Origin: a virus
DNA length: 13,376 bases
Strand: one strand, 5' to 3'
Virus record (IMG/VR): IMGVR_UViG_3300031760_000017
Made by a program: the position numbers and the translations under genes. Numbering within the stretch: the stretch's first letter is position 1; each line of letters starts with the position of its first letter. This document shows, piece after piece, positions 2,722 through 13,293 of this stretch. The notes under the pieces were generated by a model. It did no database searches and had not been told where the DNA came from. It saw nothing but the letters and a program-made list of their open reading frames with translations.

Positions 2722-3477
2722 ATGTTTTGTTTAAATTATTATCCACATGAAAAATATCTTAATGATGCGGATTAGTTAAAAATCAAATATCGTCCTGCAG
2801 ACCGCACATTAGAAGATTTTTTAAAAACTTATCAAAATATTTCAATAATTATAGACGTATCTGAGGCTTTTGAAGAAACTGATGCCGAATTATTAAAAGC
2901 ATTGTATGATAAATATTCTAATTTTAAAATAATCTTTGATTTTAATAATAAAGAACATTTATCAAGAGCAGAAAAATATCAAATTCCGCATTTCTTCTTG
3001 AACCCAGTTACAAGTTTTGATCAACTTCATGGATTAATTCAATATCATCCAACAGATATGTATATTTGTGAAGAAATGGGGTTCTATATCTTTTGGATTA
3101 GTAAATTATTGCATGAAAATAATATAAAAGTTAGAGTGTTTCCTAATATTTGTCAATCTAGTTTTGCGGAAACTCCTAGTATAAAGACTTTCTTTGTCAG
3201 ACCAGAAGATATATCTATCTATTCAAATTATGTAGATGTGTTTGAATTAGTTTCAGATAAAGATAGACAGAAAGTTTTATTTAAAATTTATAAACAGCAA
3301 AAATGGTTTGGTAAATTACAGGAGGTAATTCCATCATTTAAAGACGATGTTGATAACAGATGTCTTATGAGCGCTTTTGGAAACCTTCGGACTAGATGTA
3401 AAAAACGATGTATGTATAATCCTAATGGGTGTAAGACTTGTGATCGTTTTGTTGAATTAGCAAACTCTTTAAAGTAG
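2722..3477 (+). CDS. Hypothetical protein (about 251 aa if read through) with an in-frame TAG at codon 18 (2773-2775) and a C-terminal Cys-rich segment (RCKKRCMYNPNGCKTCDRF)
   Basis: ATG at 2722 has a very good SD (TAAGGAGA, 6-nt spacer). The frame stays open for 251 codons apart from the single TAG at 2773-2775. The six-frame track instead starts this ORF at an internal TTG (2902), which has no SD and no upstream ATG. The gene itself ends in TAG (3475-3477); read-through there would add 13 codons up to a TGA at 3514-3516. Confidence 0.5.
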
Positions 3478-3512
3478 AATAGAATCATCGTTAAACGAGC
3501 TGAAAAGAAAAG

Positions 3513-3541
3513 TTGACATTTTTAATAATTTTTGATATAAT
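3513..3541 (+). promoter_or_regulatory. Promoter P3 (perfect consensus -35 TTGACA, 17 bp, TGaTATAAT)
   Basis: TTGACA at 3513-3518; TATAAT at 3536-3541 with TG at 3533-3534. Drives ORFs 3574 and 3904 and the tRNA-Arg/Ile pair. Confidence 0.75.
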
Positions 3542-4305: not shown

Positions 4306-4377
4306 ATCTCATTAGTTTAATGGACAGAATATAACACTACGAATGTTAAGGTAGGGGTTCGATTCCCTTATGAGATA
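4306..4377 (+). tRNA. tRNA-Arg (anticodon ACG)
   Basis: Cloverleaf folded by eye. Acceptor ATCTCAT/ATGAGAT. Anticodon stem TAACA/TGTTA with loop CTACGAA. T-arm AGGGG-TTCGATT-CCCTT. D-stem has two G-U pairs. No CCA encoded. Confidence 0.75.
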
Positions 4378-4380
4378 TAT

Positions 4381-4452
4381 GGGGCATTAGCTCAGTGGTG
4401 AGAGCGCTGGTCTTATAAACCAGTGATACTGGTTCGACTCCATTATGCCCTA
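4381..4452 (+). tRNA. tRNA-Ile (anticodon UAU, AUA-decoding), an uncommon isoacceptor
   Basis: Acceptor GGGGCAT/ATGCCCT (G1-U72 wobble). D-arm GCTC-AGTGGTGA-GAGC. Anticodon stem CTGGT/ACCAG with loop CTTATAA. T-loop TTCGACT. Confidence 0.8.
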
Positions 4453-4467
4453 TTTAAAAAATCTTTT

Positions 4468-4496
4468 TTGATTTTTTATAAAATTTATTATATAAT
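4468..4496 (+). promoter_or_regulatory. Promoter P4 (-35 TTGATT, 17 bp, TATAAT) upstream of the sigma factor gene
   Basis: TTGATT at 4468-4473; TATAAT at 4491-4496. No TG extension in this copy. Confidence 0.65.
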
Positions 4497-4537
4497 ATAT
4501 ATACAGTAAAGATAGAAAAAACAAAAAGGAGTTTACT

Positions 4538-5389
4538 ATGGCAGAAATTAAAGCATCTGAAGCAACCACTGTTAATTCTATTAAAGTTTATCTCAATGAA
4601 ATTAGTCAGTATAATCTTCTTTCAAAAGAAGATGAAGTAAGATATGCGAAAGCTGCAGCAAATGGAAGTCAGGAAGCAAAGAATGCTCTGATTAACCACA
4701 ATCTCCGTCTTGTTGTTTCTATTGCTAAAAAGTATATGGGAAGAGGGCTTACTCTTTCTGACCTTATTCAGGAAGGTAATTTTGGTCTGATAAAGGCAAC
4801 AGAAAAGTATGATGTTGATAAGGGATTTAGATTTTCTACTTATGCAACCTATTGGATTAAGCAGTCTATTTCCCGTGCGGTTATGGACCAGACTAGAAAT
4901 ATCCGTATCCCTATTCATGTTATTGAGCTGATTAGTAAGATTAAGAAAGCTGAAAGAGATTTTCAGCAGTCTTATAACAGAGAGCCGAAAGAAGTGGATA
5001 TTGCGGCAGTTCTTGGAATTGATGTCAAGAAAATTAAAGAAGCGTATTCTTGGATGAAAGATACTTCTTCTCTTGATGTAGTCGTGGGAGATGATGAGGA
5101 TACCACTGTTGGTTCTTTTATTGAAGATGAGTCTGTTGCGGATTCTTTTATGAATATTGAGGATGATGAAAGAAAAGAAGCAGTTCAGAATATTCTTAAT
5201 ACCTTGAATGACCGTGAACAGCTTATTATTAAAAATAGATTTGGTATTGGCATGAATAGAGCAAAAACACTTGATGAAATTGGTAAGGAACTTGGTATTA
5301 GTAGAGAACGAGTTCGTCAGATTGAAGCGGCTGCTCTTAAGAAGCTCCGCAATCCGCGAAGAGCTGCTCTGCTAAAGGAATTTTTCTAA
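4538..5389 (+). CDS. Sigma-70 family RNA polymerase sigma factor (RpoD-like, regions 2-4 present, no region 1.1)
   Basis: Region 2 motifs are seen in the translation (LIQEGNFGLIKATEKYD..GFRFSTYATYWIKQSISRAV), with the RpoD-box-like YATYWIKQ. The region-4 helix-turn-helix is TLDEIGKELGISRERVRQIEAAALKKLRNP. Length is 283 aa. Promoter copy P4 and RBS AAAAAGGAG lie upstream. Confidence 0.85.
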   Translation: MAEIKASEATTVNSIKVYLNEISQYNLLSKEDEVRYAKAAANGSQEAKNALINHNLRLVVSIAKKYMGRGLTLSDLIQEGNFGLIKATEKYDVDKGFRFSTYATYWIKQSISRAVMDQTRNIRIPIHVIELISKIKKAERDFQQSYNREPKEVDIAAVLGIDVKKIKEAYSWMKDTSSLDVVVGDDEDTTVGSFIEDESVADSFMNIEDDERKEAVQNILNTLNDREQLIIKNRFGIGMNRAKTLDEIGKELGISRERVRQIEAAALKKLRNPRRAALLKEFF

Positions 5390-5459
5390 AATTTCTTGGG
5401 CGGGCTTGATTAAAGAATTTCTAAGAATTTTTATTAACATTAGATTCTTAAAAGATTTA

Positions 5460-5488
5460 TTGATTTTTTAAAAAATATATTATATAAT
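5460..5488 (+). promoter_or_regulatory. Promoter P5 (-35 TTGATT, 17 bp, TATAAT)
   Basis: TTGATT at 5460-5465; TATAAT at 5483-5488. Drives small ORF 5519. Confidence 0.65.
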
Positions 5489-5518
5489 ATATATGTAAGG
5501 TTAAGAAAGGATTATTAA

Positions 5519-5695
5519 ATGACAGTTAGAGAATTGTTAGAGGAAATTATTGAAGCAGCGCCTAATAGATTGGATTCAGAAATTTATTTTGAGACACCAA
5601 TGAATGATTATTCAGTTCAATGTTATGTGCTTGATGATATAACGAGTTATGGTAATAATGATGGTCTTTTCTTTGTACTTAAAGAAAATATTTGA
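5519..5695 (+). CDS. Small hypothetical protein (58 aa) not in the ORF track
   Basis: Promoter copy P5 lies upstream with RBS AAGAAAGGATTATTAA then ATG. Translation is MTVRELLEEIIEAAPNRLDSEIYFETPMNDYSVQCYVLDDITSYGNNDGLFFVLKENI. The TGA stop overlaps the -35 of promoter P6. Confidence 0.45.
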   Translation: MTVRELLEEIIEAAPNRLDSEIYFETPMNDYSVQCYVLDDITSYGNNDGLFFVLKENI

Positions 5696-5720
5696 TTTTT
5701 AAAAAAATATATGATATAAT
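5692..5720 (+). promoter_or_regulatory. Promoter P6 (-35 TTGATT, 17 bp, TGaTATAAT) heading a tRNA operon
   Basis: TTGATT at 5692-5697 overlaps the TGA stop of ORF 5519. TATAAT at 5715-5720 with TG at 5712-5713. A roughly 180-nt ORF-free leader runs to tRNA-Asn. Confidence 0.65.
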
Positions 5721-5900
5721 ATATATATAATAAAGATAGTAGAACAGCAATTTAAGAAAATCTTGATGATATAATTTTAAAAAAATTGAAATTCACTGGA
5801 AAACTAATAAAGAACTAAAGTTTTTTGTGGCTCATATTTTTTTGATAAAGTTGCCTACCTATAAAAGGAATTTAGAAAAAGAGCTTACTATCTTGTTTAA

Positions 5901-5973
5901 GGCTCCTTAGCTCAGTTGGCAGAGCAGCTGGCTGTTAACCAGCGTGTCGAAGGTTCGAGTCCTCCAGGAGCCG
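5901..5973 (+). tRNA. tRNA-Asn (anticodon GUU)
   Basis: Acceptor GGCTCCT/AGGAGCC. D-arm GCTC-AGTTGGCA-GAGC. Anticodon stem GCTGG/CCAGC with loop CTGTTAA. T-arm GAAGG-TTCGAGT-CCTCC. Confidence 0.85.
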
Positions 5974-6429
5974 CGCCGGCTTCACGCCGATATAGTGAGG
6001 TGTTCTTCCTACCAAAAAGGAATAGTGTAAAAGAACGGTTCATAAAAGAAGGTAAGTCCCAAAGGGCACAGAAATTATGAAAAGTACGTACACGTTTGCA
6101 TTTGAGATACGCGGCTCAAATGATGCACGCCCGCGGTATGGGACAGGTCAGATTCTAGTAAGTGAGCTAGAATTGTGGGTTCAAGCCCCACTGCTGCACT
6201 TAGAGTTGATTTACCTCTTGCCAATGTAAATCTAAGCTGTTGAGGATACAGCCGCGAGCGCCATCGGGGGAGTAAAGGACGAGTGGTCAGGCATTCTTGG
6301 TGCCTGGTAAAAGTCAAGTATCTTTGAAAGGTTATAAAGGTGAAACCTTTCTCGCATCTCAGATAGTGAGAGTAAGGTATAGTAGATACCTGAGCAGGGC
6401 TGAAAGGGTGGCACCTATCTACTAAATAT
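5974..6429 (+). ncRNA. Candidate structured non-coding RNA or spacer (about 455 nt) between tRNA-Asn and the UAG-anticodon tRNA
   Basis: No ORF with an RBS on either strand. GC is clearly higher than in coding DNA. Several local helices, including a perfect T-arm-like hairpin GTGGG-TTCAAGC-CCCAC at 6175-6191 that lacks the rest of a cloverleaf. Co-transcribed from P6. Confidence 0.35.
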
Positions 6430-6504
6430 GCTCCAGTAGCCCAATTGGCATGAGGCGTCTGACTTAGGATCAGAATCGTGTGGGTTCGAGTCCCTCCTGG
6501 AGTA
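6430..6504 (+). tRNA. Class-I tRNA with anticodon UAG (a Leu CUA/CUG-reading anticodon on a short-variable-arm body); identity uncertain
   Basis: Acceptor GCTCCAG/CTGGAGT (G1-U72). D-loop CAATTGGCA. Anticodon stem TCTGA/TCAGA with loop CTTAGGA. 5-nt variable loop ATCGT. T-arm GTGGG-TTCGAGT-CCCTC. Discriminator A. The body closely resembles tRNA-Thr at 9054. Confidence 0.6.
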
Positions 6505-6536
6505 TTTAATATTTATAAATATGGAGAATAAAATTT

Positions 6537-6719
6537 ATGAAAACTGTTTATGAATTAACAGAACAAGATATTATAATTATTATAGCGAATCATTTTTCCG
6601 TTCCATTGGATTCTGTTGAACTAGAACATTATAAATCTATGGAAGGGTTCTATACAGATGAGCATTATGTTGACTATGTAAAAGGGAAAGTCACAATAGA
6701 AGGAAAAGCAAATAAGTAA
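6537..6719 (+). CDS. Small hypothetical protein (60 aa) embedded between tRNAs
   Basis: RBS GGAGAATAAAATTT then ATG; TAA stop. Flanked by the UAG-anticodon tRNA and tRNA-Asp. Confidence 0.45.
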   Translation: MKTVYELTEQDIIIIIANHFSVPLDSVELEHYKSMEGFYTDEHYVDYVKGKVTIEGKANK

Positions 6720-6724
6720 TATAT

Positions 6725-6798
6725 GGCTCTGTGGTGCAGAAGAGTAGCACGCGTGCCTGTCACGCACGAGGTCGAGGGTTCGAGTCCCTTCAGAGTCG
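6725..6798 (+). tRNA. tRNA-Asp (anticodon GUC)
   Basis: Acceptor GGCTCTG/CAGAGTC. D-arm GTGC-AGAAGAGTA-GCAC. Anticodon stem CGTGC/GCACG with loop CTGTCAC. T-arm GAGGG-TTCGAGT-CCCTT. Discriminator G. Confidence 0.85.
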
Positions 6799-7224
6799 CT
6801 AGAGGAAATGGCATCGCCTCTCTAAATATAGACTGCAGGGTTCGCCACTCGGATCAGAAAAACGAGCTTGTAGCAAGGCGTAATGACTACACGAGCCATA
6901 AAACGTGCATCCATCTTCGTGTGTGCTTATTATTATAAGTAAGTGTGGAAGAAGTATGAGTGGAAGTCTCATAAAACTAAGTTCCCGAGGCTCAAACTAC
7001 AAATCGGATTTGTCAGATAAGACATTAAAATCGACGTTAACATGGATTAGAGTTAAACTACCACTGGCATGACCAAATATTCAGGCTTTTCAATTCTAAA
7101 CAGCCTGCCTGAAGGCGCATGATATGTGGCTTTGTGGCAAACGTCTAATAAGAAGGCAAAGTAAACTCAGTTATCAGTATTTATCGCGCCTCTTGATAAT
7201 GCGTACCAAGATAAATCTTTTTAT
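6799..7224 (+). ncRNA. Candidate structured non-coding spacer (about 425 nt) after tRNA-Asp
   Basis: ORF-free and GC-richer than coding DNA. Hairpins include ACAAAT-CGG-ATTTGT and CAGGC...GCCTG. Confidence 0.3.
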
Positions 7225-7253
7225 TTGATATTTATAAAAAAATATAATATAAT
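7225..7253 (+). promoter_or_regulatory. Promoter P7 (-35 TTGATA, 17 bp, TATAAT)
   Basis: TTGATA at 7225-7230; TATAAT at 7248-7253 within a TATAATATAATAT run. Drives ORF 7301 and tRNA-Glu. Confidence 0.55.
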
Positions 7254-7300
7254 ATTATTGTAAGTTAAAAAACAATCTTTTTAAGAAAAGGAGAGTAGCT

Positions 7301-7429
7301 ATGCTTTATATTGTATATTACAGAGATGATGACAAAGTAAGACATATGACTTTCGTTAGAACTTATAAAGAAGTTCTTTTTATTCAGGAAAGATTTGATT
7401 TTGTTACAGTAGAATGTTGCGGTAAGTAA
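7301..7429 (+). CDS. Very small hypothetical protein (42 aa) not in the ORF track
   Basis: Promoter copy P7 lies upstream with RBS AAAAGGAGAGTAGCT then ATG; TAA stop 5 nt before tRNA-Glu. Translation is MLYIVYYRDDDKVRHMTFVRTYKEVLFIQERFDFVTVECCGK. Confidence 0.35.
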   Translation: MLYIVYYRDDDKVRHMTFVRTYKEVLFIQERFDFVTVECCGK

Positions 7430-7434
7430 ATAAT

Positions 7435-7507
7435 GCCCCGTTAGGCAAGCGGTTTAAGCCATCGCCCTTTCACGGCGAAGACGGGAGTTCAACTCTCCCA
7501 CGGGGTA
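7435..7507 (+). tRNA. tRNA-Glu (anticodon UUC)
   Basis: Acceptor GCCCCGT/ACGGGGT. Anticodon stem TCGCC/GGCGA with loop CTTTCAC. T-arm GGGAG-TTCAACT-CTCCC. Confidence 0.8.
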
Positions 7508-7676
7508 TTAATCGTTGATAGACAAGTATTAAAAGTCGATAAGAAAATAAAGCCGAATTACATAGGGACATTGAGGAGAGACACCTCATAGAGCGGGGGA
7601 AGATCCATAAGATACTCTAAAAATCATCTATGCAACCCTATACGGATGCGTGTGATTGAAACTGCACACTCAGCGA

Positions 7677-7705
7677 TTGATTTTTATAAAAAATTTTGTT
7701 ATAAT
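7677..7705 (+). promoter_or_regulatory. Promoter P8 (-35 TTGATT, 17 bp, TGtTATAAT)
   Basis: TTGATT at 7677-7682; TATAAT at 7700-7705 with TG at 7697-7698. Drives ORF 7730. Confidence 0.7.
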
Positions 7706-7729
7706 ATTTATATGAGAAAAGGAGAAAAA

Positions 7730-7885
7730 ATGAGAAGAATTAATTATACAGCGACAATATTAGGAACAATATTTGTTGAAGACTGGCGAGATGATGATGA
7801 AATTTCTTCTCTTATTGATGAAGACCTTGAGGATAGAGGAGTTCCTTTTCTAGAAATTAATGAAATTGAATTTGATGAAAATTAA
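7730..7885 (+). CDS. Small acidic protein (51 aa)
   Basis: Promoter copy P8 lies upstream with RBS AAAAGGAGAAAAA then ATG at 7730. The track's longer ORF from 7646 would start inside the promoter, so the 7730 start is preferred. The C-terminal half is Asp/Glu-rich; ends in TAATAA. Confidence 0.5.
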   Translation: MRRINYTATILGTIFVEDWRDDDEISSLIDEDLEDRGVPFLEINEIEFDEN

Positions 7886-8401
7886 TAATAAAGACAGATA
7901 CAGCAAGATATTTTGTAAATAAAAATAATCCAAATTTTTATACTATGAAGATTACCTGTCTTGGGCGAATAAAAAACAAAATATAGCAATGGTGATTAAA
8001 GAAAATAGTGTACATAAAACTTTAAAGAGTCCACCACACTGCGGCGGTCGGTAGGGAGAGACCATAGCAGACTACCTAGTATAGCTGGAGTCATGACCAG
8101 CGGAATTCAGGCTATAGTGTAAAAAGGGAGCCTCGAAATGGACAAAGCTATATTTATATAAATTTGTTGAAACTCTTGGCTATGCATCTACTTGTAAAAA
8201 TAGCGGGATTTATAAATGATAGACTGATTTTATAAATGGATTGAAAGCAAGATACGGTCAACAAGGTGGGACAGGCAGAGAGAGAACATTTACCCACGTT
8301 AATTATAGTGGCGATTAGAGTTGGTTACCTAGGCAAAATGATTTTTATTCAAAAGTATGGTGGTAAGCTTTGTTTCCACGCCGAGTCACTATAATTTCTA
8401 G
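7886..8401 (+). ncRNA. Candidate structured non-coding region (about 515 nt) upstream of the suppressor tRNA
   Basis: ORF-free. Begins with the conserved 17-mer AAAGACAGATACAGCAA also found at the P9 transcript start. Contains several 5-9 bp helices (GGTAG...CTACC, GCTGG...CCAGC). Confidence 0.3.
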
Positions 8402-8475
8402 CGCCCGATAGTGGAGTGGCTTAACACAGCGGTCTCTAAAACCGCGGATCCTGGGTTCGAATCCCAGTCGGGTGA
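8402..8475 (+). tRNA. Suppressor tRNA, anticodon CUA (reads the UAG amber codon); class I, amino-acid identity undetermined
   Basis: Acceptor CGCCCGA/TCGGGTG (one G-U). Anticodon stem GCGGT/ACCGC with loop CTCTAAA, giving U33, C34 U35 A36 and A37. Variable loop GGATC. T-arm CTGGG-TTCGAAT-CCCAG is perfect. Discriminator A. The anticodon arm differs from a Trp(CCA)-type loop CTCCAAA by a single nucleotide. Confidence 0.8.
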
Positions 8476-8571
8476 TAGATATATGAAAGAGAGGTATGGT
8501 CCATTGGACAATTAAGCCCCACAAGTTAGGATAGGAGTTCCCGAACCTTCTATAATAAAATCGGATGCTGC

Positions 8572-8645
8572 AGCGGGTTAGTAGCAGAGGTCAGCTCGTC
8601 TCCCTCATAAGGAGAAGGTCATGGGTTCGAATCCCATACCCGCCA
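8572..8645 (+). tRNA. tRNA-Met (anticodon CAU); could instead be an Ile2(LAU)-type or initiator-like tRNA
   Basis: Anticodon stem TCTCC/GGAGA with loop CTCATAA. T-arm ATGGG-TTCGAAT-CCCAT. Acceptor AGCGGGT/ACCCGCC has an A1-C72 mismatch. There is no run of three G-C pairs in the anticodon stem. Confidence 0.6.
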
Positions 8646-9053
8646 TCACGGATGCACTTTCGTGTAAGAAAAATGGTGCAACCTACATCTGGGTTAAACG
8701 AGGGTGTGCTTTTGGAGAATTTCTATAGAGAAAAATTCTCCCTACTAATCAGGGTAATGATTAGCCAGCGGTTTGGTAAACACGCAGCCCCAGCCAAAGG
8801 GTAGTTAAAATAAGAGGTGGTTTGATGCAAGCCTAAGCATCCAAGACGAGTGATCATAGTCTTGCTAAATGCGGGATCCACGATACCAAATAGTGTAAAG
8901 ACGTAGCATACCGAGCTTTAACTCGGAGATTCAAAGTAACGCAATGATTTGGTGGGCGTGCAGCCGCAATCCTTTATAATCTGAGCAAGTAGTTAAGACG
9001 AAAATGCTCAGTTGTAATATAGACTGCGGTTTATAGAGAATATAAGCCGCTTT
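8646..9053 (+). ncRNA. Candidate structured non-coding spacer (about 408 nt) between tRNA-Met and tRNA-Thr
   Basis: ORF-free apart from antisense shadow ORFs. Perfect 9-bp hairpin GGAGAATTT-CTATAGAGAA-AAATTCTCC at 8713-8740, plus TAATCA-GGGTAA-TGATTA and CCGAG-CTTTAA-CTCGG. Confidence 0.3.
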
Positions 9054-9126
9054 GCCTTTCTGGCGCAATTGGCAGCGCATCTGATTTGTAATCAGACGGT
9101 TAAGGGTTCGAGTCCCTTGGGAGGCT
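9054..9126 (+). tRNA. tRNA-Thr (anticodon UGU)
   Basis: Acceptor GCCTTTC/GGGAGGC (two G-U). D-arm GCGC-AATTGGCA-GCGC. Anticodon stem TCTGA/TCAGA with loop TTTGTAA. T-arm AAGGG-TTCGAGT-CCCTT. Confidence 0.8.
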
Positions 9127-9154
9127 CTACACGATAGCAAATAAGTGTATAAAC

Positions 9155-9338
9155 GGATGTGCGGTTAGCTGACCTTAAAGTGAAGTATGCCCTATTCCGA
9201 GGAGGCGATTTCGGGAGTAGTTATTTTGGTTAGTTGACGAAACTGTAAAACTACGAAATATCGGATGACCAAAAAGCTTCCTCCAGAGAACAAATGTCGG
9301 GAGGTTAAACGTGGATGGGTGGTTGGCTGACCTTAAAG
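9155..9338 (+). repeat. Imperfect 26-nt direct repeat (23/26): GGATGTGCGGTTAGCTGACCTTAAAG at 9155-9180 and GGATGGGTGGTTGGCTGACCTTAAAG at 9313-9338
   Basis: Seen by eye. The second copy lies immediately 5' of the CAA-anticodon tRNA at 9344. The first is followed by degenerate, non-folding sequence. Confidence 0.5.
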
Positions 9339-9343
9339 CTTAT

Positions 9344-9417
9344 GCGGAGATGACGCAATTGGCAGACGTGACAACCTCAAAAGTTGTATAGTTAGAGTTC
9401 GAATCTCTTTCTCCGTA
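9344..9417 (+). tRNA. Class-I tRNA with anticodon CAA (a Leu UUG-reading anticodon on a short-variable-arm body); identity uncertain
   Basis: Acceptor GCGGAGA/TCTCCGT (G1-U72). D-loop CAATTGGCAGA. Anticodon stem ACAAC/GTTGT with loop CTCAAAA. 5-nt variable loop. T-arm AGAG-TTCGAAT-CTCT. Discriminator A. Confidence 0.6.
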
Positions 9418-9421
9418 TTAT

Positions 9422-9496
9422 GTAGGGATGATGCAGACGTGGGAAACATGATAATTTAGAAAATTATTTATGAAGGTTCGAGCCCTTCACCCTACT
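9422..9496 (+). pseudogene. tRNA-like element, probable pseudo-tRNA (anticodon loop reads AGA on an all-A/U stem; acceptor has an A-A mismatch)
   Basis: Acceptor GTAGGGA/ACCCTAC with 6 of 7 positions paired. Anticodon stem ATAAT/ATTAT with loop TTAGAAA. T-arm GAAGG-TTCGAGC-CCTTC is perfect. The element abuts the -35 of promoter P9. Confidence 0.35.
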
Positions 9497-9497
9497 T

Positions 9498-9526
9498 TTG
9501 ATTTTTTATAAAAATTATAATATAAT
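9498..9526 (+). promoter_or_regulatory. Promoter P9 (-35 TTGATT, 17 bp, TATAAT)
   Basis: TTGATT at 9498-9503; TATAAT at 9521-9526. The transcript begins with the conserved AAAGACAGATACAGCAA motif and runs into the tRNA-like fragment and tRNA-Leu(UAA). Confidence 0.65.
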
Positions 9527-9579
9527 ATATATGTAAGATAAAAAGACAGATACAGCAAACTTTCTTTCAAGAATATTAA

Positions 9580-9633
9580 GTGATATGGTTCACAAATTGT
9601 CTGTAAAACAATGTTAGCTGGTTCGAGTCCAGT
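9580..9633 (+). pseudogene. Truncated tRNA-like fragment with a Tyr-type anticodon arm (GUA); no pairable acceptor stem found
   Basis: D-arm GTGA-TATGGT-TCAC. Anticodon stem ATTGT/ACAAT with loop CTGTAAA. T-arm GCTGG-TTCGAGT-CCAGT. The flanking 7-mers (GAATATT / ATAAAAG) do not pair. Lies about 40 nt downstream of the P9 transcription start. Confidence 0.3.
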
Positions 9634-9788
9634 ATAAAAGGTATAATTGAGCTGTCTTGATTAAAAAATAGCGCCGATGAAGGTCGGTTTGGGAATTAAC
9701 CCAAATAAGATGCAAAACAGGCGGGGGTCGCGCCCCTACAAAACTTCAGATATAGGCGAGGGACTGACTGAAGGGAAGCTATTTATTA

Positions 9789-9871
9789 GCGGGTATGGCG
9801 GAATGGCAGACGCATGGGACTTAAAATCCCTGGGGCGCAAGCTCGTGCGAGTTCAAGTCTCGCTACCCGCA
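9789..9871 (+). tRNA. tRNA-Leu (anticodon UAA), canonical class II
   Basis: Acceptor GCGGGTA/TACCCGC is perfect. Anticodon loop CTTAAAA. 15-nt variable arm GGGGCGCAAGCTCGT. T-arm GCGAG-TTCAAGT-CTCGC. Discriminator A. Confidence 0.85.
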
Positions 9872-10043
9872 TTGCACATTTTTATAAAAATGCCCATTCT
9901 ACATAAAGAGCTTGTAGACGATGGTTTGGCATCGTAAAAATCTAGTTGGAACTGTTACGGTGGCAGGATAAAATAGCCGTAGGTGGCTAGACACTTATAA
10001 CCAAACAATATAATCTTTTGAACGAAAACTGGAGAAGTTTTCA

Positions 10044-10078
10044 GGGGATTCAGATGCCCGCATCAATCCCTGTTTTTA
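10044..10078 (+). terminator. Probable rho-independent terminator
   Basis: Stem GGGGATT / AATCCCT with a 14-nt loop, followed by GTTTTTA. Confidence 0.5.
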
Positions 10079-10209
10079 CTTACGAGTCTTTCTGGATGCT
10101 GCAGAAGAAAGAAAGACAATATTAAGTTGCTTGGTGTGTGCCGTTGAACACACTGATAATAAAAGATTTAATTTCAAAGATTTAGAATGAAATTGAAAGG
10201 AGAATTATT

Positions 10210-10506
10210 ATGCAGATTTTGTATAAAAGTGATGTAACAGGAAAAACTTATAAGTCTGAGGAAGCACTTTTGGAAGCGGAAGCTAAGGTATCAGAAGCTA
10301 AGAAACAGGAAGAGCTTGAAAAGAAAGCAAGAGCAGAAGCTGCTAAGTATGTTCAGGATAAGCTGACTGCCGCATCTACCGCACAGAAGGAAGCTCAGAA
10401 AGCGTTAAGTGAATTTTGTAAGAAATATGGAACATTTAAAACCTCTCTAAAGAGAGATGAAGACCCGTGGAGTTTTTTCGATTTTTTATTTAATCCTTTT
10501 GAGTAA
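10210..10506 (+). CDS. Lys/Ala/Glu-rich small protein (98 aa), hypothetical
   Basis: RBS AAAGGAGAATTATT then ATG; TAA stop followed at once by a clear intrinsic terminator. Charged, coiled-coil-like composition similar to 2262-2660. Confidence 0.6.
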   Translation: MQILYKSDVTGKTYKSEEALLEAEAKVSEAKKQEELEKKARAEAAKYVQDKLTAASTAQKEAQKALSEFCKKYGTFKTSLKRDEDPWSFFDFLFNPFE

Positions 10507-10518
10507 TTTTTTAATTAG

Positions 10519-10550
10519 ATGGAAGGATTAAATATCCTTCCATTTTTTAT
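10519..10550 (+). terminator. Rho-independent terminator after ORF 10210-10506
   Basis: 10-bp stem ATGGAAGGAT / ATCCTTCCAT with loop TAAAT, followed by TTTTTTAT. Confidence 0.8.
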
Positions 10551-10622
10551 TGGTTCTTAGTGTTAGCGGAAGCACGTTGGTCTCCAAAACCAAAAGGACT
10601 GGTTCGAATCCAGTAGTTCCTG
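10551..10622 (+). tRNA. tRNA-Trp-like (anticodon CCA) with a non-pairing acceptor stem; possibly aberrant or pseudo
   Basis: D-arm GTGT-TAGCGGAA-GCAC. Anticodon stem TTGGT/ACCAA with loop CTCCAAA. T-arm ACTGG-TTCGAAT-CCAGT is perfect. The flanking 7-mers TGGTTCT and AGTTCCT are not complementary. Begins right at the T-tract of the upstream terminator. Confidence 0.45.
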
Positions 10623-10800
10623 CTACTATATCTTGAGCGGTTTGGAATCCGCTACTATTAATTTTATTGTTGGTTGGTTAAAATGTAGGTAAACCCATCC
10701 ATAGGGCAAGATATAATTTTAATAAGGTTTTGCAAAACTTATATATTCGTCGATGACGAAAGAAAAATGTTCAATAGCAAATGATTAGGAATGAACAATC

Positions 10801-10873
10801 TGATGGGTAGCTCAATTGGGAGAAGCAACGCCATGTGGCGGCGTGGATAGAGATTCGAATTCTCTCCCATCAA
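10801..10873 (+). tRNA. tRNA-His (anticodon GUG), copy 1; no G-1 encoded
   Basis: Acceptor TGATGGG/CCCATCA is perfect. Anticodon stem ACGCC/GGCGT with loop ATGTGGC. T-arm AGAGA-TTCGAAT-TCTCT. Discriminator A, with C at position -1. Confidence 0.7.
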
Positions 10874-10879
10874 CTATTA

Positions 10880-10965
10880 GGTGCGGATCTGGCTGGATGA
10901 AGACGCGGTCTTGAAAACCGTCGGGCGTGATGAGCGCCTTGGGGGTTCGAGTCCCTCCCGCATCG
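10880..10965 (+). tRNA. tRNA-Ser (anticodon UGA), class II
   Basis: Acceptor GGTGCGG/CCGCATC (one G-U). Anticodon stem GCGGT/ACCGT with loop CTTGAAA. Long variable arm CGGGCGTGATGAGCGCC. T-arm GGGGG-TTCGAGT-CCCTC. Discriminator G. Confidence 0.75.
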
Positions 10966-10979
10966 CTAAGGAGAATAAT

Positions 10980-11291
10980 ATGAGAAAAGATAAAAGATTT
11001 AAAACAGCGAATCCTATTTTATTATATTCAGATATATCGGCACAATATGATTTATTATTAAAAGAATATAACGAATTAGGACATAATTATATTGAAGTAT
11101 CCCAAGATTATATTAAACTTGCTAATTGTTATAAAGAATTAAAAAAAGAAAATACTGAACTTAAAGAAGAAATTTCTGAATGGAAAAAGGTTTCTGAATG
11201 TGATACTCCATTTCAATTAAATCATTTATTAACTGAAATTAATAAAAAGCTTCAAAGATTAAATCAAGAATTAAGAAAATTATTTTGTTAA
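10980..11291 (+). CDS. Hypothetical coiled-coil protein (103 aa)
   Basis: RBS CTAAGGAGAATAAT then ATG at 10980. The track ORF from 10881 overlaps tRNA-Ser(UGA), so the internal start is preferred. Heptad-like LKKENTELKEEISEWKK region; TAA stop. Confidence 0.55.
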   Translation: MRKDKRFKTANPILLYSDISAQYDLLLKEYNELGHNYIEVSQDYIKLANCYKELKKENTELKEEISEWKKVSECDTPFQLNHLLTEINKKLQRLNQELRKLFC

Positions 11292-11384
11292 GGCGGAATG
11301 GCAGAGTCTGGTTTAATGCACCTTCCTGCTAAGAAGGCGACCGCTGTAAAAAGCGGTCCGAAGGTTCAAATCCTTCTTCCGTCG
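11292..11384 (+). tRNA. tRNA-Ser (anticodon GCU), class II
   Basis: Acceptor GGCGGAA/TTCCGTC (one G-U). Anticodon stem CCTTC/GAAGG with loop CTGCTAA. 22-nt variable arm containing the hairpin ACCGCT-GTAAAAA-AGCGGT. T-arm GAAGG-TTCAAAT-CCTTC. Discriminator G. Confidence 0.85.
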
Positions 11385-11390
11385 TTTCAT

Positions 11391-11474
11391 CCCCTATTAA
11401 ACCGTTAAGGAGGCGGGCGGGGCTGTAAACTCCGCATCGGAAGATTCGAGTGGGTTCGATACCCTCATGGGGGA
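11391..11474 (+). tRNA. tRNA-Tyr (anticodon GUA), class II
   Basis: Acceptor CCCCTAT/ATGGGGG (one G-U). Anticodon stem CGGGG/CTCCG with loop CTGTAAA. About 15-nt variable arm. T-arm GTGGG-TTCGATA-CCCTC. Discriminator A. Confidence 0.7.
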
Positions 11475-11539
11475 CTGTGTATACACATTAGATCCTCAGG
11501 TTTGGTAGTTTCAGCGAGCAGAGATGGAAACTACCTATA

Positions 11540-11612
11540 GGCTCGATTAACTCAGCTGGGAGAGTGCGACTCTTACAAAGTCGAAGTCGTTGGTTCAAGT
11601 CCAACATTGAGT
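11540..11612 (+). tRNA. tRNA-Val (anticodon UAC); 3' CCA is genomically encoded (11613-11615)
   Basis: Acceptor GCTCGAT/ATTGAGT (two G-U). D-arm ACTC-AGCTGGGA-GAGT. Anticodon stem CGACT/AGTCG with loop CTTACAA. T-arm GTTGG-TTCAAGT-CCAAC. Discriminator A, then CCA. Confidence 0.8.
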
Positions 11613-11685
11613 ACCATTTGCGGGACCGGCGTATAAAGGGTCCTACCACCCGACTCGTAGTAAACATGGAACGCTGAAAGGTCTT

Positions 11686-11743
11686 GGGGAACTCCAGGGT
11701 AAGATACTCTGCAGGAGAGGTTGTGCTCCCCACTTTATTTTTT
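11686..11743 (+). terminator. Terminator-like GC-clamped hairpin with U-tract at the end of the tRNA-Ser/Tyr/Val operon
   Basis: GGGGA at 11686-11690 pairs with TCCCC at 11727-11731 around an internal CTCC/GGAG helix, followed by ACTTTATTTTTT. Confidence 0.4.
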
Positions 11744-11762
11744 ATAAAAAATATGATATAAT
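11734..11762 (+). promoter_or_regulatory. Promoter P10 (weak -35 TTTATT, 17 bp, extended -10 TGaTATAAT)
   Basis: TTTATT at 11734-11739 lies within the T-tract of the upstream terminator-like hairpin. TATAAT at 11757-11762 with TG at 11754-11755. Drives ORF 11794. Confidence 0.55.
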
Positions 11763-11793
11763 ATATTTATAAAAGATAAGGGAGAAAAATATT

Positions 11794-12018
11794 ATGAAAA
11801 AAGCTATTGCAGATTTTAATAAAGCATATGAAACAGACGATATGTTTCATGAATATTTGGCTTTTAGCCAGTTTTTTCAAAGAGCTTTTATAAGTAAGGG
11901 CGGATATATAATTGATACAGGTAATTTTGAAACTTGCAATAGAGAATTGATAGATTTAGTTGAAGCAAAAATTCATAAACATCCTTTGTTATGGAAATTG
12001 TTTTTTATGGTGGCATAA
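11794..12018 (+). CDS. Hypothetical protein (74 aa)
   Basis: Promoter copy P10 lies upstream with RBS AAGGGAGAAAAATATT then ATG; TAA stop immediately followed by the ATG of the next gene. Confidence 0.55.
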   Translation: MKKAIADFNKAYETDDMFHEYLAFSQFFQRAFISKGGYIIDTGNFETCNRELIDLVEAKIHKHPLLWKLFFMVA

Positions 12019-12513
12019 ATGATACAATTATATACAAGTTATTTTTATCAAATCCGCCACTTTAAAAAGAATATGGTGCCTATTTCGACAGCAATGTGGG
12101 ATCCAAAATGGTATCATGATTGGATGGGTCATGATTATACTTTTAAGGACAAGAGGGGAATATATAATGGTATTCGCGCAGAATGTTTTCATTTTGATGG
12201 AGAAGATCATGGATGCGGCGATCAATGTTTACTCTCACCCAAAGATCCGTCTAAATGTGAATTTTTGCGGCGTCTCCGCCAACAATATAATAAATTAAAT
12301 TTTCAAGATATTATGACTCGATGTGAAAGGTTAGCTTCTTACATTCAGTCTATTGAAAATTTACAAGAATTACCTATTTTAGTTTTTGTTTTTTATGAAA
12401 CTCCTACAAACTTATGTTCAGAAAGAAAAACTTTACAAAATTGGTTTAAAGATAATGGATATGATTTACAAGAATTGAAATATCCAATAAAAGATAATTA
12501 TATTGATATTTAA
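12019..12513 (+). CDS. Hypothetical protein (164 aa) with an HxD/CGD Cys/His cluster
   Basis: ATG directly after the previous TAA, in the same frame. 495-nt ORF ending in TAATAA; the stop overlaps promoter copy P11. Confidence 0.6.
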   Translation: MIQLYTSYFYQIRHFKKNMVPISTAMWDPKWYHDWMGHDYTFKDKRGIYNGIRAECFHFDGEDHGCGDQCLLSPKDPSKCEFLRRLRQQYNKLNFQDIMTRCERLASYIQSIENLQELPILVFVFYETPTNLCSERKTLQNWFKDNGYDLQELKYPIKDNYIDI

Positions 12514-12531
12514 TAAAAATTTTGATATAAT
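12503..12531 (+). promoter_or_regulatory. Promoter P11 (-35 TTGATA, 17 bp, TGaTATAAT)
   Basis: TTGATA at 12503-12508 overlaps the end of ORF 12019-12513. TATAAT at 12526-12531 with TG at 12523-12524. Drives the tRNA-Ile/Pro/His cluster. Confidence 0.65.
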
Positions 12532-12546
12532 ATATAAGTAAGGTAA

Positions 12547-12620
<74 letters not shown>

Positions 12621-12624
12621 TCCT

Positions 12625-12700
12625 CGGGGCGTAGCGAAGTTTGGTTTATCGCGCCTGATTTGGGTTCAGGAGACCGCAGGTTCAAATCCTGTCGCCCCGA
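12625..12700 (+). tRNA. tRNA-Pro (anticodon UGG)
   Basis: Acceptor CGGGGCG/CGCCCCG is perfect. D-arm GCGA-11-nt loop-TCGC. Anticodon stem CCTGA/TCAGG with loop TTTGGGT. T-arm GCAGG-TTCAAAT-CCTGT. Confidence 0.85.
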
Positions 12701-12702
12701 CT

Positions 12703-12775
12703 GTGGATATAGCATAATTGGTAATGCAGCGGATTGTGGATCCGCCGAGTGAGGGTTCAATCCCCTCTATCCACC
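12703..12775 (+). tRNA. tRNA-His (anticodon GUG), copy 2; C73 discriminator but no G-1 encoded
   Basis: Acceptor GTGGATA/TATCCAC is perfect. D-arm GCAT-AATTGGTAA-TGC. Anticodon stem GCGGA/TCCGC with loop TTGTGGA. T-arm GAGGG-TTCAATC-CCCTC. Discriminator C. Confidence 0.75.
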
Positions 12776-12804
12776 TGACTTAATTATAAAAAGGAGAAAA
12801 TAAA

Positions 12805-13209
12805 ATGGGTTATTATGCAATATATGCTTATGAAAATATGTATGGCGGTCTTCATGGAATAAATGATTATGCAGTAGTAGAAGCTGATTCTTATGAAATG
12901 GCAGAGAAATTTGCTGCAGAACTTTCAAGTGATGTTATAGACTCCTATCTTGACGATGAAGAAATTCGTGAAGCTGCGGGGATTGATGAAGATGATGTCT
13001 TTTTTACAGATGAAGATGATAAGCTTGATGATTTTTATGCAGAAGATATTGCATATGACATTTACACTCTGGATGAATCTAAAATTAGAGATGAAATATC
13101 ATTAAATTCTTATGCAGATGAATTTAGAGACGACCCGCATGAATTTATTGAAAAATATAAAGTTAAAGGAGAAGATAAATTTTATGAATTTTATGATAGT
13201 CTCTTTTAA
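12805..13209 (+). CDS. Highly acidic protein (134 aa), candidate DNA-mimic or anti-restriction-like protein
   Basis: RBS AAAAAGGAGAAAATAAA then ATG; TAA stop. The translation is Asp/Glu-rich throughout, with stretches such as DEDDVFFTDEDDKLDDFYAEDIAYD. Confidence 0.6.
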   Translation: MGYYAIYAYENMYGGLHGINDYAVVEADSYEMAEKFAAELSSDVIDSYLDDEEIREAAGIDEDDVFFTDEDDKLDDFYAEDIAYDIYTLDESKIRDEISLNSYADEFRDDPHEFIEKYKVKGEDKFYEFYDSLF

Positions 13210-13220
13210 CTATCTAATTA

Positions 13221-13293
<73 letters not shown>

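Follow-up and report, generated by a model that had tools for sequence, protein, structure and literature searches.

Reassignment of the amber codon by phage-encoded suppressor tRNAs with a CTA anticodon (Sup-CTA) is well known, and the amino acid inserted at TAG has been assigned or assumed to be glutamine (10.1101/2021.08.26.457843; PMC9523058; PMC10607447; PMC11210395; PMC10879173; PMC13037316). A survey of 180 phage suppressor tRNAs listed the isotypes Gln, Trp, Ile and Tyr, and no Glu (PMC10879173). Recoded phages keep the machinery for the code change in a block that is read in the standard code, and it is the late genes that are recoded (10.1101/2021.08.26.457843). Here we describe an amber-decoding tRNA (the CUA tRNA) encoded at positions 8402-8475 of a 13,376-nucleotide stretch of viral DNA, IMG/VR record IMGVR_UViG_3300031760_000017. 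This stretch, referred to as the window, comes from a phage of about 140 kb whose lineage is undescribed before. A suppressor tRNA in a recoded phage is a known phenomenon, now confirmed for this lineage; the new part is the amino acid, which, judging from codon comparisons and from the body of the tRNA, is probably glutamate rather than glutamine in the clade to which the window belongs.

The described phages that use genetic code 15, such as the crAss-like phages (10.1101/2021.08.26.457843; PMC9523058; PMC11210395), share with this one a CUA tRNA, a concentration of TAG codons in structural genes, a machinery block in the standard code and the absence of TAG as a terminator. The present phage differs from them in that both the alignment columns and the tRNA body point to Glu, and in that no theta ribozyme lies beside the tRNA; theta or hepatitis delta virus-like ribozymes and other RNAs were looked for beside the CUA tRNA and none was found. 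The Agate clade consists of recoded gut phages of about 154 kb with Firmicutes hosts and with TGA- or TAG-recoded lineages (Borges et al., 10.1101/2021.08.26.457843). Our phage resembles it in size class (relatives of 130-144 kb), in its Firmicute-like Shine-Dalgarno sites and in having both standard-code and recoded close relatives, and differs from it in the amino acid proposed here. phAss-1, of the proposed Phassvirus, has a genome of 136 kb with 36 tRNAs, three Sup-CTA and 41 TAG-containing open reading frames (ORFs), and Gln was adopted for it from a TerL alignment and a tRNAscan-SE isotype call (PMC10607447). The two phages are alike in genome size, in a large tRNA array with Sup-CTA, in that no dedicated aminoacyl-tRNA synthetase was found and in suspected hosts of Clostridia type, but phAss-1 has no similarity to the window detectable by megablast or tblastn.

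Amber is read as glutamate in peritrich ciliates, whose nuclear code (NCBI table 30) assigns both TAA and TAG to Glu. The likeness lies in a dedicated tRNA that makes amber glutamate; the ciliate code differs in belonging to a eukaryotic nuclear genome, in including TAA and in involving no conflict between the codes of virus and host. Laboratory suppressors likewise combine a CUA anticodon with a Glu-like or Trp-like body. U35 is common to the Glu, Gln and amber anticodons, and Normanly, Abelson, Miller and colleagues are said to have found in 1990 that amber suppressors made from E. coli tRNA-Glu and tRNA-Trp were largely mischarged with Gln by glutaminyl-tRNA synthetase (GlnRS). The natural case differs in that its outcome would depend on which set of glutamyl-tRNA synthetase (GluRS), GlnRS and GatCAB the host possesses. 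No report of TAG read as Glu in a phage was found in the literature searched, the coverage of which was incomplete and the silence of which is not proof.

The tRNA gene and its anticodon are placed as follows.

8402-8475, plus strand: class-I amber-decoding tRNA of 74 nucleotides (nt), from ARAGORN, Rfam, its sequence and 14 variants
8436-8438, plus strand: anticodon CTA at tRNA position 35 (ARAGORN), inside the loop CTCTAAA at 8434-8440

The Rfam tRNA model RF00005 matches 8402-8475 from model position 1 to 71 of 71 with 62.8 bits (gathering score 29; E = 6e-12 for the whole window). Read directly, the acceptor stem CGCCCGA/TCGGGTG has 7 bp, among them C1-G72, C3-G70 and a single wobble pair, G2.U71. 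The remaining elements are U8, a D arm of the Glu/Asp type with U11-A24 and GG in its loop, a 5-bp anticodon stem (GCGGT/ACCGC) closing the CTCTAAA loop with U33 and a purine at 37, a 5-nt variable loop (GGATC), the T arm CTGGG-TTCGAAT-CCCAG and the discriminator A73. CCA is not encoded, the next bases being TAGATA. The minimum free energy fold is cloverleaf-like, at -28 kcal/mol and z = -2.0. Two IMG/VR phage contigs (144 and 140 kb) carry the gene in an identical 75-nt copy, and related phages contain 14 distinct orthologous variants. Among these the stems show compensatory double changes in 15 of 20 pairs and the CTCTAAA loop is unchanged in all 14; the CUA tRNA is real, its match being far beyond what chance would give, and it is under selection.

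Whether TAG is a sense codon was read from about 25 kb, comprising the window and the genes downstream of it, of the 84,156-bp ENA metagenome contig ERZ27256908 k141_3321089, whose positions 1993-15368 are the window at 100% identity. The gene with which the argument starts lies upstream of the tRNA.

2722-3516, plus strand: gene for 264 amino acids, function unassigned by Pfam or PHROG; its ATG lies 6 nt after AAGGAG and its TGA stop is at 3514-3516
2773-2775, plus strand: in-frame TAG at codon 18, in a Glu-conserved column
3475-3477, plus strand: in-frame TAG at codon 252, in a variable polar column that holds E, K, D, T or N in relatives

More than 200 homologues of about 264 amino acids exist, in which conservation extends over the 17 residues that precede the first TAG and over the 12 that follow the second. 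At codon 18, the 27 aligned sequences (26 IMG/VR relatives and the window) have GAA 18 times, GAG once and TAG eight times, and CAA or CAG in no case; a list of 30 loci agrees with this. None of the 19 well-supported genes of the window stops at TAG (17 stop at TAA and 2 at TGA), and the same holds for all called genes in the 25 kb, each of which ends at TAA or TGA. Just downstream of the window, genes for 161, 639, 638 and 337 amino acids contain 1, 11, 15 and 10 in-frame TAGs, respectively. TAG is partitioned between two gene blocks: summed by hand from the per-gene counts, about 2 occur in the 2,850 codons of the tRNA/sigma-factor block, to which a DUF2828 RNA-binding protein also belongs, and 37 in the 1,775 codons of g161, g639, g638 and the 337-residue recombinase. 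g638 (L006 16328-18244) matches a PHROG tail protein family. g639 belongs to a family of proteins of 860-1060 amino acids in the same gene cluster, which we call the tail-protein family by position, a name that carries no functional annotation. The fourth gene encodes the recombinase.

L006 18262-19275, minus strand: XerC/D-like tyrosine recombinase, 337 amino acids, 10 TAGs, about 5 kb downstream of the window and inside the tail module

It is covered over its whole length by Phage_integrase Pfam domains and by Xer homologues in the PDB. The integrases of the Garnet and Topaz prophages avoid recoded stops (Borges et al., 10.1101/2021.08.26.457843), whereas this recombinase is rich in them.

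Recoding is supported because sequence is conserved on both sides of the TAGs, because terminators are free of TAG and because the tail genes are rich in it. TAG is a sense codon in this phage, and the CUA tRNA is best explained as a functional, amber-decoding tRNA. A preliminary description, made from the letters of the window, had pictured a cleanly folding class-I tRNA with the loop CTCTAAA, an intact T arm and a 7-bp acceptor stem, taken it for an amber suppressor within a phage tRNA array, suggested that the element reassigns or suppresses amber codons, and advised running a tRNA predictor and looking for TAG-interrupted genes elsewhere. The fold is upheld by ARAGORN, which gives anticodon CTA at 8402-8475 on the plus strand, as well as by Rfam and by direct reading; the sense reading of amber agrees with a gene that runs through two TAGs and with the four interrupted genes downstream, at least one of them a tail gene. 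Its account of an in-frame TAG in a gene at 2722-3477 needs revision at one end, since the TAG at 2773-2775 is real and the supposed stop at 3477 is the second in-frame TAG of a gene that ends with TGA at 3516.

The choice of amino acid could not be taken from protein databases. The nearest database homologues have Q at all TAG positions, and the DNA of the relatives shows that these residues are TAG codons translated with table 15. A likelihood computed from protein-database homologues was dropped for this reason, and because such evidence is circular, it was replaced by a codon-level analysis of IMG/VR DNA loci. The public protein entries P0001-P0003, P0121 and P0122 are table-15 translations of this kind, with Q at every TAG.

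Individual genes already place TAG at conserved glutamates. Alignment of g638 with five uninterrupted standard-code homologues (51-57% identity) puts five of its TAGs, at residues 71, 158, 234, 454 and 514, on positions conserved as Glu. At two of its TAGs, in the contexts ...TFH-x-IED... and ...KN-x-WPK..., all five homologues have E; at three further sites four of the five have E, where the fifth has D twice and T once. No TAG falls on an invariant Gln of that protein. Residue 132 of g639 is a TAG within an FSEWS motif in which 13 of 13 standard-code homologues have E, and 3 or 4 of the 10 TAGs of the recombinase lie in columns conserved as D or E and none in Q columns.

Pooled over all loci, the picture was less simple. 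In 17 ortholog families taken together, TAG occurs in 15 of 104 otherwise invariant E columns and in 4 of 30 invariant Q columns, and hardly elsewhere. The tail-protein family, in which 13 standard-code homologues (no TAG) were compared with 15 TAG users, gave the following counts.

Conserved Glu columns: TAG in 6 of 15
Conserved Gln columns: TAG in 6 of 8
Conserved Asp columns: TAG in 2 of 14
Conserved Ser columns: TAG in 1 of 19
Conserved Leu columns: TAG in 1 of 18
Conserved Tyr columns: TAG in 0 of 37
Conserved Gly columns: TAG in 0 of 22

The pooled counts resembled a 50:50 mixture of E-like and Q-like use until they were split by phage lineage. In the window's clade each single phage, the window contig and two 93%-identical relatives included, has TAG at E-conserved columns, and the clade's total is 28 occurrences at E-conserved and 2 at Q-conserved columns; the distant phages L183 and L185 have it 8 times at Q-conserved columns and never at E-conserved ones. 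In strongly conserved columns the ratio of E to Q is 9:1 for the clade and 0:6 for L183 and L185 (Fisher p ~0.0009, by hand arithmetic). At least these two distant relatives appear from their columns to use TAG as Gln. Wherever the tRNA region of a clade member was sampled, a syntenic CUA tRNA was present. The mixing of two lineages with opposite preference accounts both for the 50:50 look of the pooled data and for the best fit, in the tail-protein family, of a model in which TAG is synonymous with both codon types. In leave-one-out controls, ordinary codons sorted between E-type and Q-type columns as they should (GAG 100:2, GAA 661:1, CAG 1:55, CAA 15:261). By this measure, TAG in the clade sorts as a Glu codon does.

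Codon-substitution models agreed with the columns. These had 62 states, neighbour-joining trees, a scale, kappa and omega for each family, and stationarity assumed. In log-likelihood (lnL), Glu exceeded Gln by 127 under M0 (and Lys by 89), by 84 with general nucleotide rates and pair-specific omega, and by 107 with three omega classes. As a control, seven known codons were masked in turn, and the same model returned the right amino acid for each of them: Q for CAG and CAA, E for GAG, K for AAG, N for AAT, Y for TAT and L for TTG. Other meanings of TAG (Trp, Tyr, Leu, Ser, Lys or Asp) were dismissed by the column statistics and the codon models, none coming closer to Glu than 89 lnL; for Trp, none of the conserved W columns had TAG (0 of 35 in the 17 families and 0 of 5 in the tail-protein family). 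A mutational excess of GAG to TAG is not the explanation for the Glu signal, because G-T exchange is not fast in these genomes (GT = 1, CT 1.93, AG 2.48) and because real E-Q exchange is near average, at about 1.3 times the family omega (~0.06).

The body of the tRNA was compared with isotype covariance models for Glu, Gln and Trp built from the phages' own tRNAs. The CUA tRNA of the window scored as follows.

Glu model: 64.4 bits
Gln model: 53.7 bits
Trp model: 50.2 bits

The Glu model was the best of the three for 7 of 8 CUA tRNAs, and three of these, the window's included, are the three top matches of that model outside tRNA-Glu. The identity elements that E. coli GlnRS and bacterial GatCAB recognize are U1-A72, G2-C71, G3-C70, G73 and a short D loop of Gln type. 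The phages' own tRNA-Gln has U1-A72, G73 and the short D loop, none of which is found in the window's CUA tRNA, with its longer D loop. CUA tRNAs generally have C-G, G-C or G.U at 1:72, usually G2.U71, A73 or C73, and a long D loop. All 14 variants have U11-A24, a pair in the augmented D helix that E. coli GluRS reads along with U35. Variants of the L012 type have a D loop, AAGCGGTTTAAG, identical to that of the window's tRNA-Glu, and a 4-nt variable loop, AGAC. One genome per GTDB species was searched with a degenerate D-arm motif that fits all variants; the motif occurred in 34 tRNA-Asp, 16 tRNA-Glu and 4 tRNA-Cys genes and in two further tRNAs (one called tRNA-Ser(ACT), the other with the anticodon TTA), and in no tRNA-Gln or tRNA-Trp.

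These features were set against other possible origins of the tRNA. A suppressor derived from tRNA-Gln (supE-like) does not fit C1-G72, G2.U71, C3-G70, A73, the longer D loop or the lower Gln score, and one derived from tRNA-Trp fits neither the score of its model nor the absence of TAG from conserved W columns. Likeness to tRNA-Trp is confined to the anticodon arm (CUCUAAA against CUCCAAA), which is why blastn matched the gene to phage tRNA-Trp. An alanine identity conferred by a G.U pair was rejected as well, because the wobble, in the canonical register that U8 and the T arm fix, is at 2:71 and not at 3:70, and because the alignments agree poorly with Ala. The Gln/Trp-like body of the preliminary description is thus not what we find, as the tRNA is without U1-A72 and G73, is best matched by the Glu model and has a D arm whose motif never occurs in tRNA-Gln or tRNA-Trp. 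Its caution that sequence does not reveal the amino acid is right for the tRNA alone, but the comparative data point to glutamate. Bacterial GatCAB requires U1-A72, and a Glu-like CUA tRNA that does not have this pair would plausibly be glutamylated and not converted to Gln.

Taken as a whole, it seems reasonably likely that a clade of gut or rumen-type phages of about 130-145 kb reassigned amber to Glu by way of a Glu/Asp-like tRNA that is charged by the host GluRS and ignored by GatCAB and GlnRS, while relatives that share its tail module read TAG as Gln or use the standard code. Several observations weigh against glutamate. The window's variant, with its variable loop of 5 nt and its C1-G72, departs from textbook tRNA-Glu, and D arms of exactly its type are found more often in tRNA-Asp, the models having compared Glu, Gln and Trp. 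In g638, residue 72 is a TAG opposite a Tyr shared by all five standard-code homologues; it stands next to another TAG, this one in a conserved Glu column (...K-TAG-TAG-DYN... against ...EYEND...), and may mean a shift in the alignment or a genuine replacement of Tyr by Glu. The codon models are mis-specified in their stationarity and neighbour-joining trees, and many of the TAG occurrences counted are phylogenetically correlated by common ancestry. In the literature searched, all phage amber reassignments, whether published or validated by experiment, are to Gln, with mass-spectrometry validation in crAss-like phages (PMC9523058) and with terminase alignments that gave Gln "in most cases" (10.1101/2021.08.26.457843; see also PMC10607447). 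Ordinary genetic code 15, with Gln charged by the host GlnRS through U35 or by the GluRS/GatCAB route as in crAss-like phages, would explain TAG at Glu columns by frequent mutation of GAG to TAG where Gln is tolerated, or by selection that seeds late genes with TAG. In favour of it, relatives of at least 85% protein identity exchange TAG with CAG in 8 columns and with GAG in 1, which counts against Glu because TAG = Gln would make these exchanges synonymous C/T transitions; 4 of the 8 columns come from the L034-L037 lineage, in whose sampled loci no CUA tRNA was seen, and 4 lie inside the clade. In the bin of 70-85% identity the partners of TAG are Q in 97 and E in 70 pair counts, a Q:E ratio near that of CAG; one family (fam6) favours Q by 4 lnL; and L183 and L185 clearly behave as if TAG were Gln. 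We nevertheless regard code 15 as unlikely for the clade itself. A codon for Gln should not sort 28:2 towards invariant-Glu columns when CAG sorts 1:55 and CAA 15:261, the contrast of the clade with L183 and L185 goes beyond what mutation bias alone would give, G-T exchange is not elevated and E-Q exchange is close to the average, the codon models disfavour Q by 84-127 lnL, and the tRNA is without the Gln identity elements and scores lower on the Gln model. Within the clade, the test of code 15 by alignment of TAG with Gln came out against it, with the TAG-CAG exchange of close relatives as the counter-signal.

Decoding might instead be ambiguous, a non-discriminating GluRS with partial amidation by GatCAB, or two synthetases, producing a mixture of Glu and Gln. 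When exchange rates were left free, both TAG-GAG (1.0-1.6) and TAG-CAG (1.0-1.1) were exchanged as if synonymous (1.59 and 1.13 in one fit, 1.00 and 1.01 in a second), a result that also weighs against glutamate alone and may reflect either mixed lineages or ambiguous decoding. In the tail-protein family, a model with both exchanges synonymous scored -35, better than E (-89) or Q (-146) alone. However, two lineages of opposite preference in that family explain this fit by themselves, and a product that is half Gln should be selected against at the clade's invariant Glu columns, in which ordinary codons for Gln never occur, so that we think a mixture improbable. Leaky suppression, in which TAG remains a stop for some genes and occasional read-through regulates a few products, would suit the short and long products that gene 2722-3516 could give and the near absence of TAG from the early block. 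With 10-15 TAGs per gene, though, low efficiency would yield essentially no full-length protein, none of the well-supported genes in the 25 kb ends at TAG, and the sequence past each TAG is conserved; we consider this account very improbable. Least credible, to the point that we give it almost no weight, is a tRNA-Pyl or a decayed, non-functional tRNA copy. ARAGORN does label the gene "Pyl", as it prints "tRNA-Pyl" for any CTA anticodon, and the label is a consequence of that anticodon alone, the structure being that of an ordinary elongator tRNA. tRNA-Pyl has a 6-bp anticodon stem, a 3-nt variable loop and a small D loop without G18G19, and is without the T-psi-C consensus; the 5-bp anticodon stem, the 5-nt variable loop, the G18G19 of the D loop and the TTCGAAT T loop of the CUA tRNA rule this identity out, and TAG columns hold E, Q and D, not K. 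Decay is contradicted by covariation and by a loop that is invariant over 14 variants.

Infection might proceed in the following way. Early on, host ribosomes working in the standard code would translate the TAG-free block, with the sigma factor and the region of the tRNA array, unaided. The array would be transcribed, and the CUA tRNA would gain its CCA and be charged by a host synthetase, most likely GluRS, which would recognize the tRNA-Glu-like D arm with U11-A24 together with U35. The absence of U1-A72 would let the charged tRNA escape conversion to Gln, and it would compete with release factor 1 (RF1) at UAG. Full-length products would then be made from the genes with TAG, namely the tail proteins, the recombinase of the tail module and gene 2722-3516, so that late expression would be tied to accumulation of the tRNA. 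Read-through would be harmless to the genes of the window because these stop at TAA or TGA.

A glutamate assignment would have consequences for annotation. Gene callers that use table 15 (prodigal-gv, Pharokka-gv pipelines) would be writing Gln at each TAG of the clade, and database proteins would be wrong at up to about 3% of late-gene positions. One stop codon would have different meanings in related viruses of standard-code hosts, and a single phage group would contain relatives that differ in the meaning of TAG. The phage would also offer a natural tRNA(CUA) that is a substrate of GluRS; engineered ones are, to our knowledge, hard to obtain. Glu and Gln differ in mass by 0.98 Da, which makes the question testable by metaproteomics.

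The relatives of the window in IMG/VR, with about 93% DNA identity to it, are 130-144 kb in size. Among 50,697 GenBank phages, megablast with the whole window matched only fragments of tRNA-Phe, and tblastn with the 264-residue protein of gene 2722-3516 found no match in the records of the same collection. Most ORFs of the window, gene 2722-3516 included, had no match in Pfam or PHROG searches. G+C content is 30-43%, and ribosome-binding sites of the AAGGAG type precede gene starts. The host would be a low-GC bacterium with Shine-Dalgarno-type sites, probably a Firmicute; the Shine-Dalgarno use is Firmicute-like. No release-factor or synthetase gene was seen among the genes of the 25 kb. The other annotated features around the CUA tRNA are listed below.

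4538-5389, plus strand: sigma-70 family sigma factor (Pfam Sigma70 r1_2, r2, r3 and r4; PHROG 351, E = 4e-90), with no internal TAG
4306-13293, plus strand: array of 22 tRNA genes among small TAG-free ORFs (ARAGORN; 20 of the 22 above the Rfam gathering score)
8572-8645, plus strand: tRNA-Met (CAT), the next tRNA after the CUA tRNA
L006 12063-13586, plus strand: TAG-free DUF2828/DUF7788 protein of 507 amino acids (PHROG 850, "RNA-binding protein"), at the end of the tRNA array and about 1.5 kb downstream of the window

The CUA tRNA is the seventh of the 22 in the array, and most related loci that bear a CTA tRNA have it followed by a CAT tRNA. No significant match to a sigma-70 promoter consensus was found for the CUA tRNA, nor any -35 box. 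A perfect CTATAAT precedes the CUA tRNA by 6 nt, at 8389-8395 on the plus strand, and a second, at 8550-8556 on the same strand, precedes tRNA-Met by 15 nt; with 6 found in the window against 4.2 expected, the motif is not enriched.

The tail module is common to standard-code lineages and to lineages with Glu-like and Gln-like use of TAG, and TGA-recoded ones may share it too; close relatives of the window diverge from one another in these genes. In L173, L175 and L176 the tail-protein ORF (start 6001) stops after 128-135 codons even with TAG as sense, a sign either of TGA recoding in these phages or of a disrupted gene. A homologue of the recombinase occupies the same place in two standard-code phages (L041 10001-11011, L042 10001-11008), after genes of tail-fibre type and shortly before holin and endolysin genes, and both phages have a second integrase. 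The TAG-rich recombinase may be a tail-gene invertase rather than an integrase for lysogeny. The best matches of the 507-residue DUF2828/DUF7788 protein, at about 40% identity, are in Bacillus siphophages of 160-170 kb, such as Tsamsa and PBC2.

Other tRNAs of these phages are unusual in their own right. One orthologous slot of 74 nt, about 91% identical between phages, carries three anticodons (window 10801-10874, plus strand; L002 2557-2630; L001 3446-3519, minus strand; L029 17594-17667): the window has GTG (His), the relative of 140 kb has GTA (Tyr, although of class-I length) and that of 144 kb has TTG (Gln). As these anticodons differ by single base changes, the comparison suggests anticodon switching within the phage tRNA array. 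Odd tRNAs of the window's array lie at 6429-6505, 9343-9418, 9422-9496 and 10886-10966. The array's tRNA-Leu(TAG) and tRNA-Leu(CAA) are only 76-77 nt long, a class-I length unusual for bacterial Leu; its "tRNA-Ser(AGA)" has 75 nt and only 35.8 bits; and the anticodon of its tRNA-Ser(TGA), which is below the Rfam threshold, is called at position 27. L026 has a tRNA with the ochre-reading anticodon TTA about 1.3 kb from its CTA tRNA (15980-16054 and 14614-14689), and a Halobacillus genome (L072) has a tRNA-Glu-like tRNA with anticodon TTA. ARAGORN reports the four-base anticodon ATCA in L018 (15329-15403), L021 (13780-13854) and L025 (14447-14521), and TAAA in 99-nt genes of L034 (20413-20511) and L036 (14512-14610). 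In L031 it also reports a phage-encoded transfer-messenger RNA (tmRNA) at 16329-16606, with the tag peptide ADNYTYQMAA.

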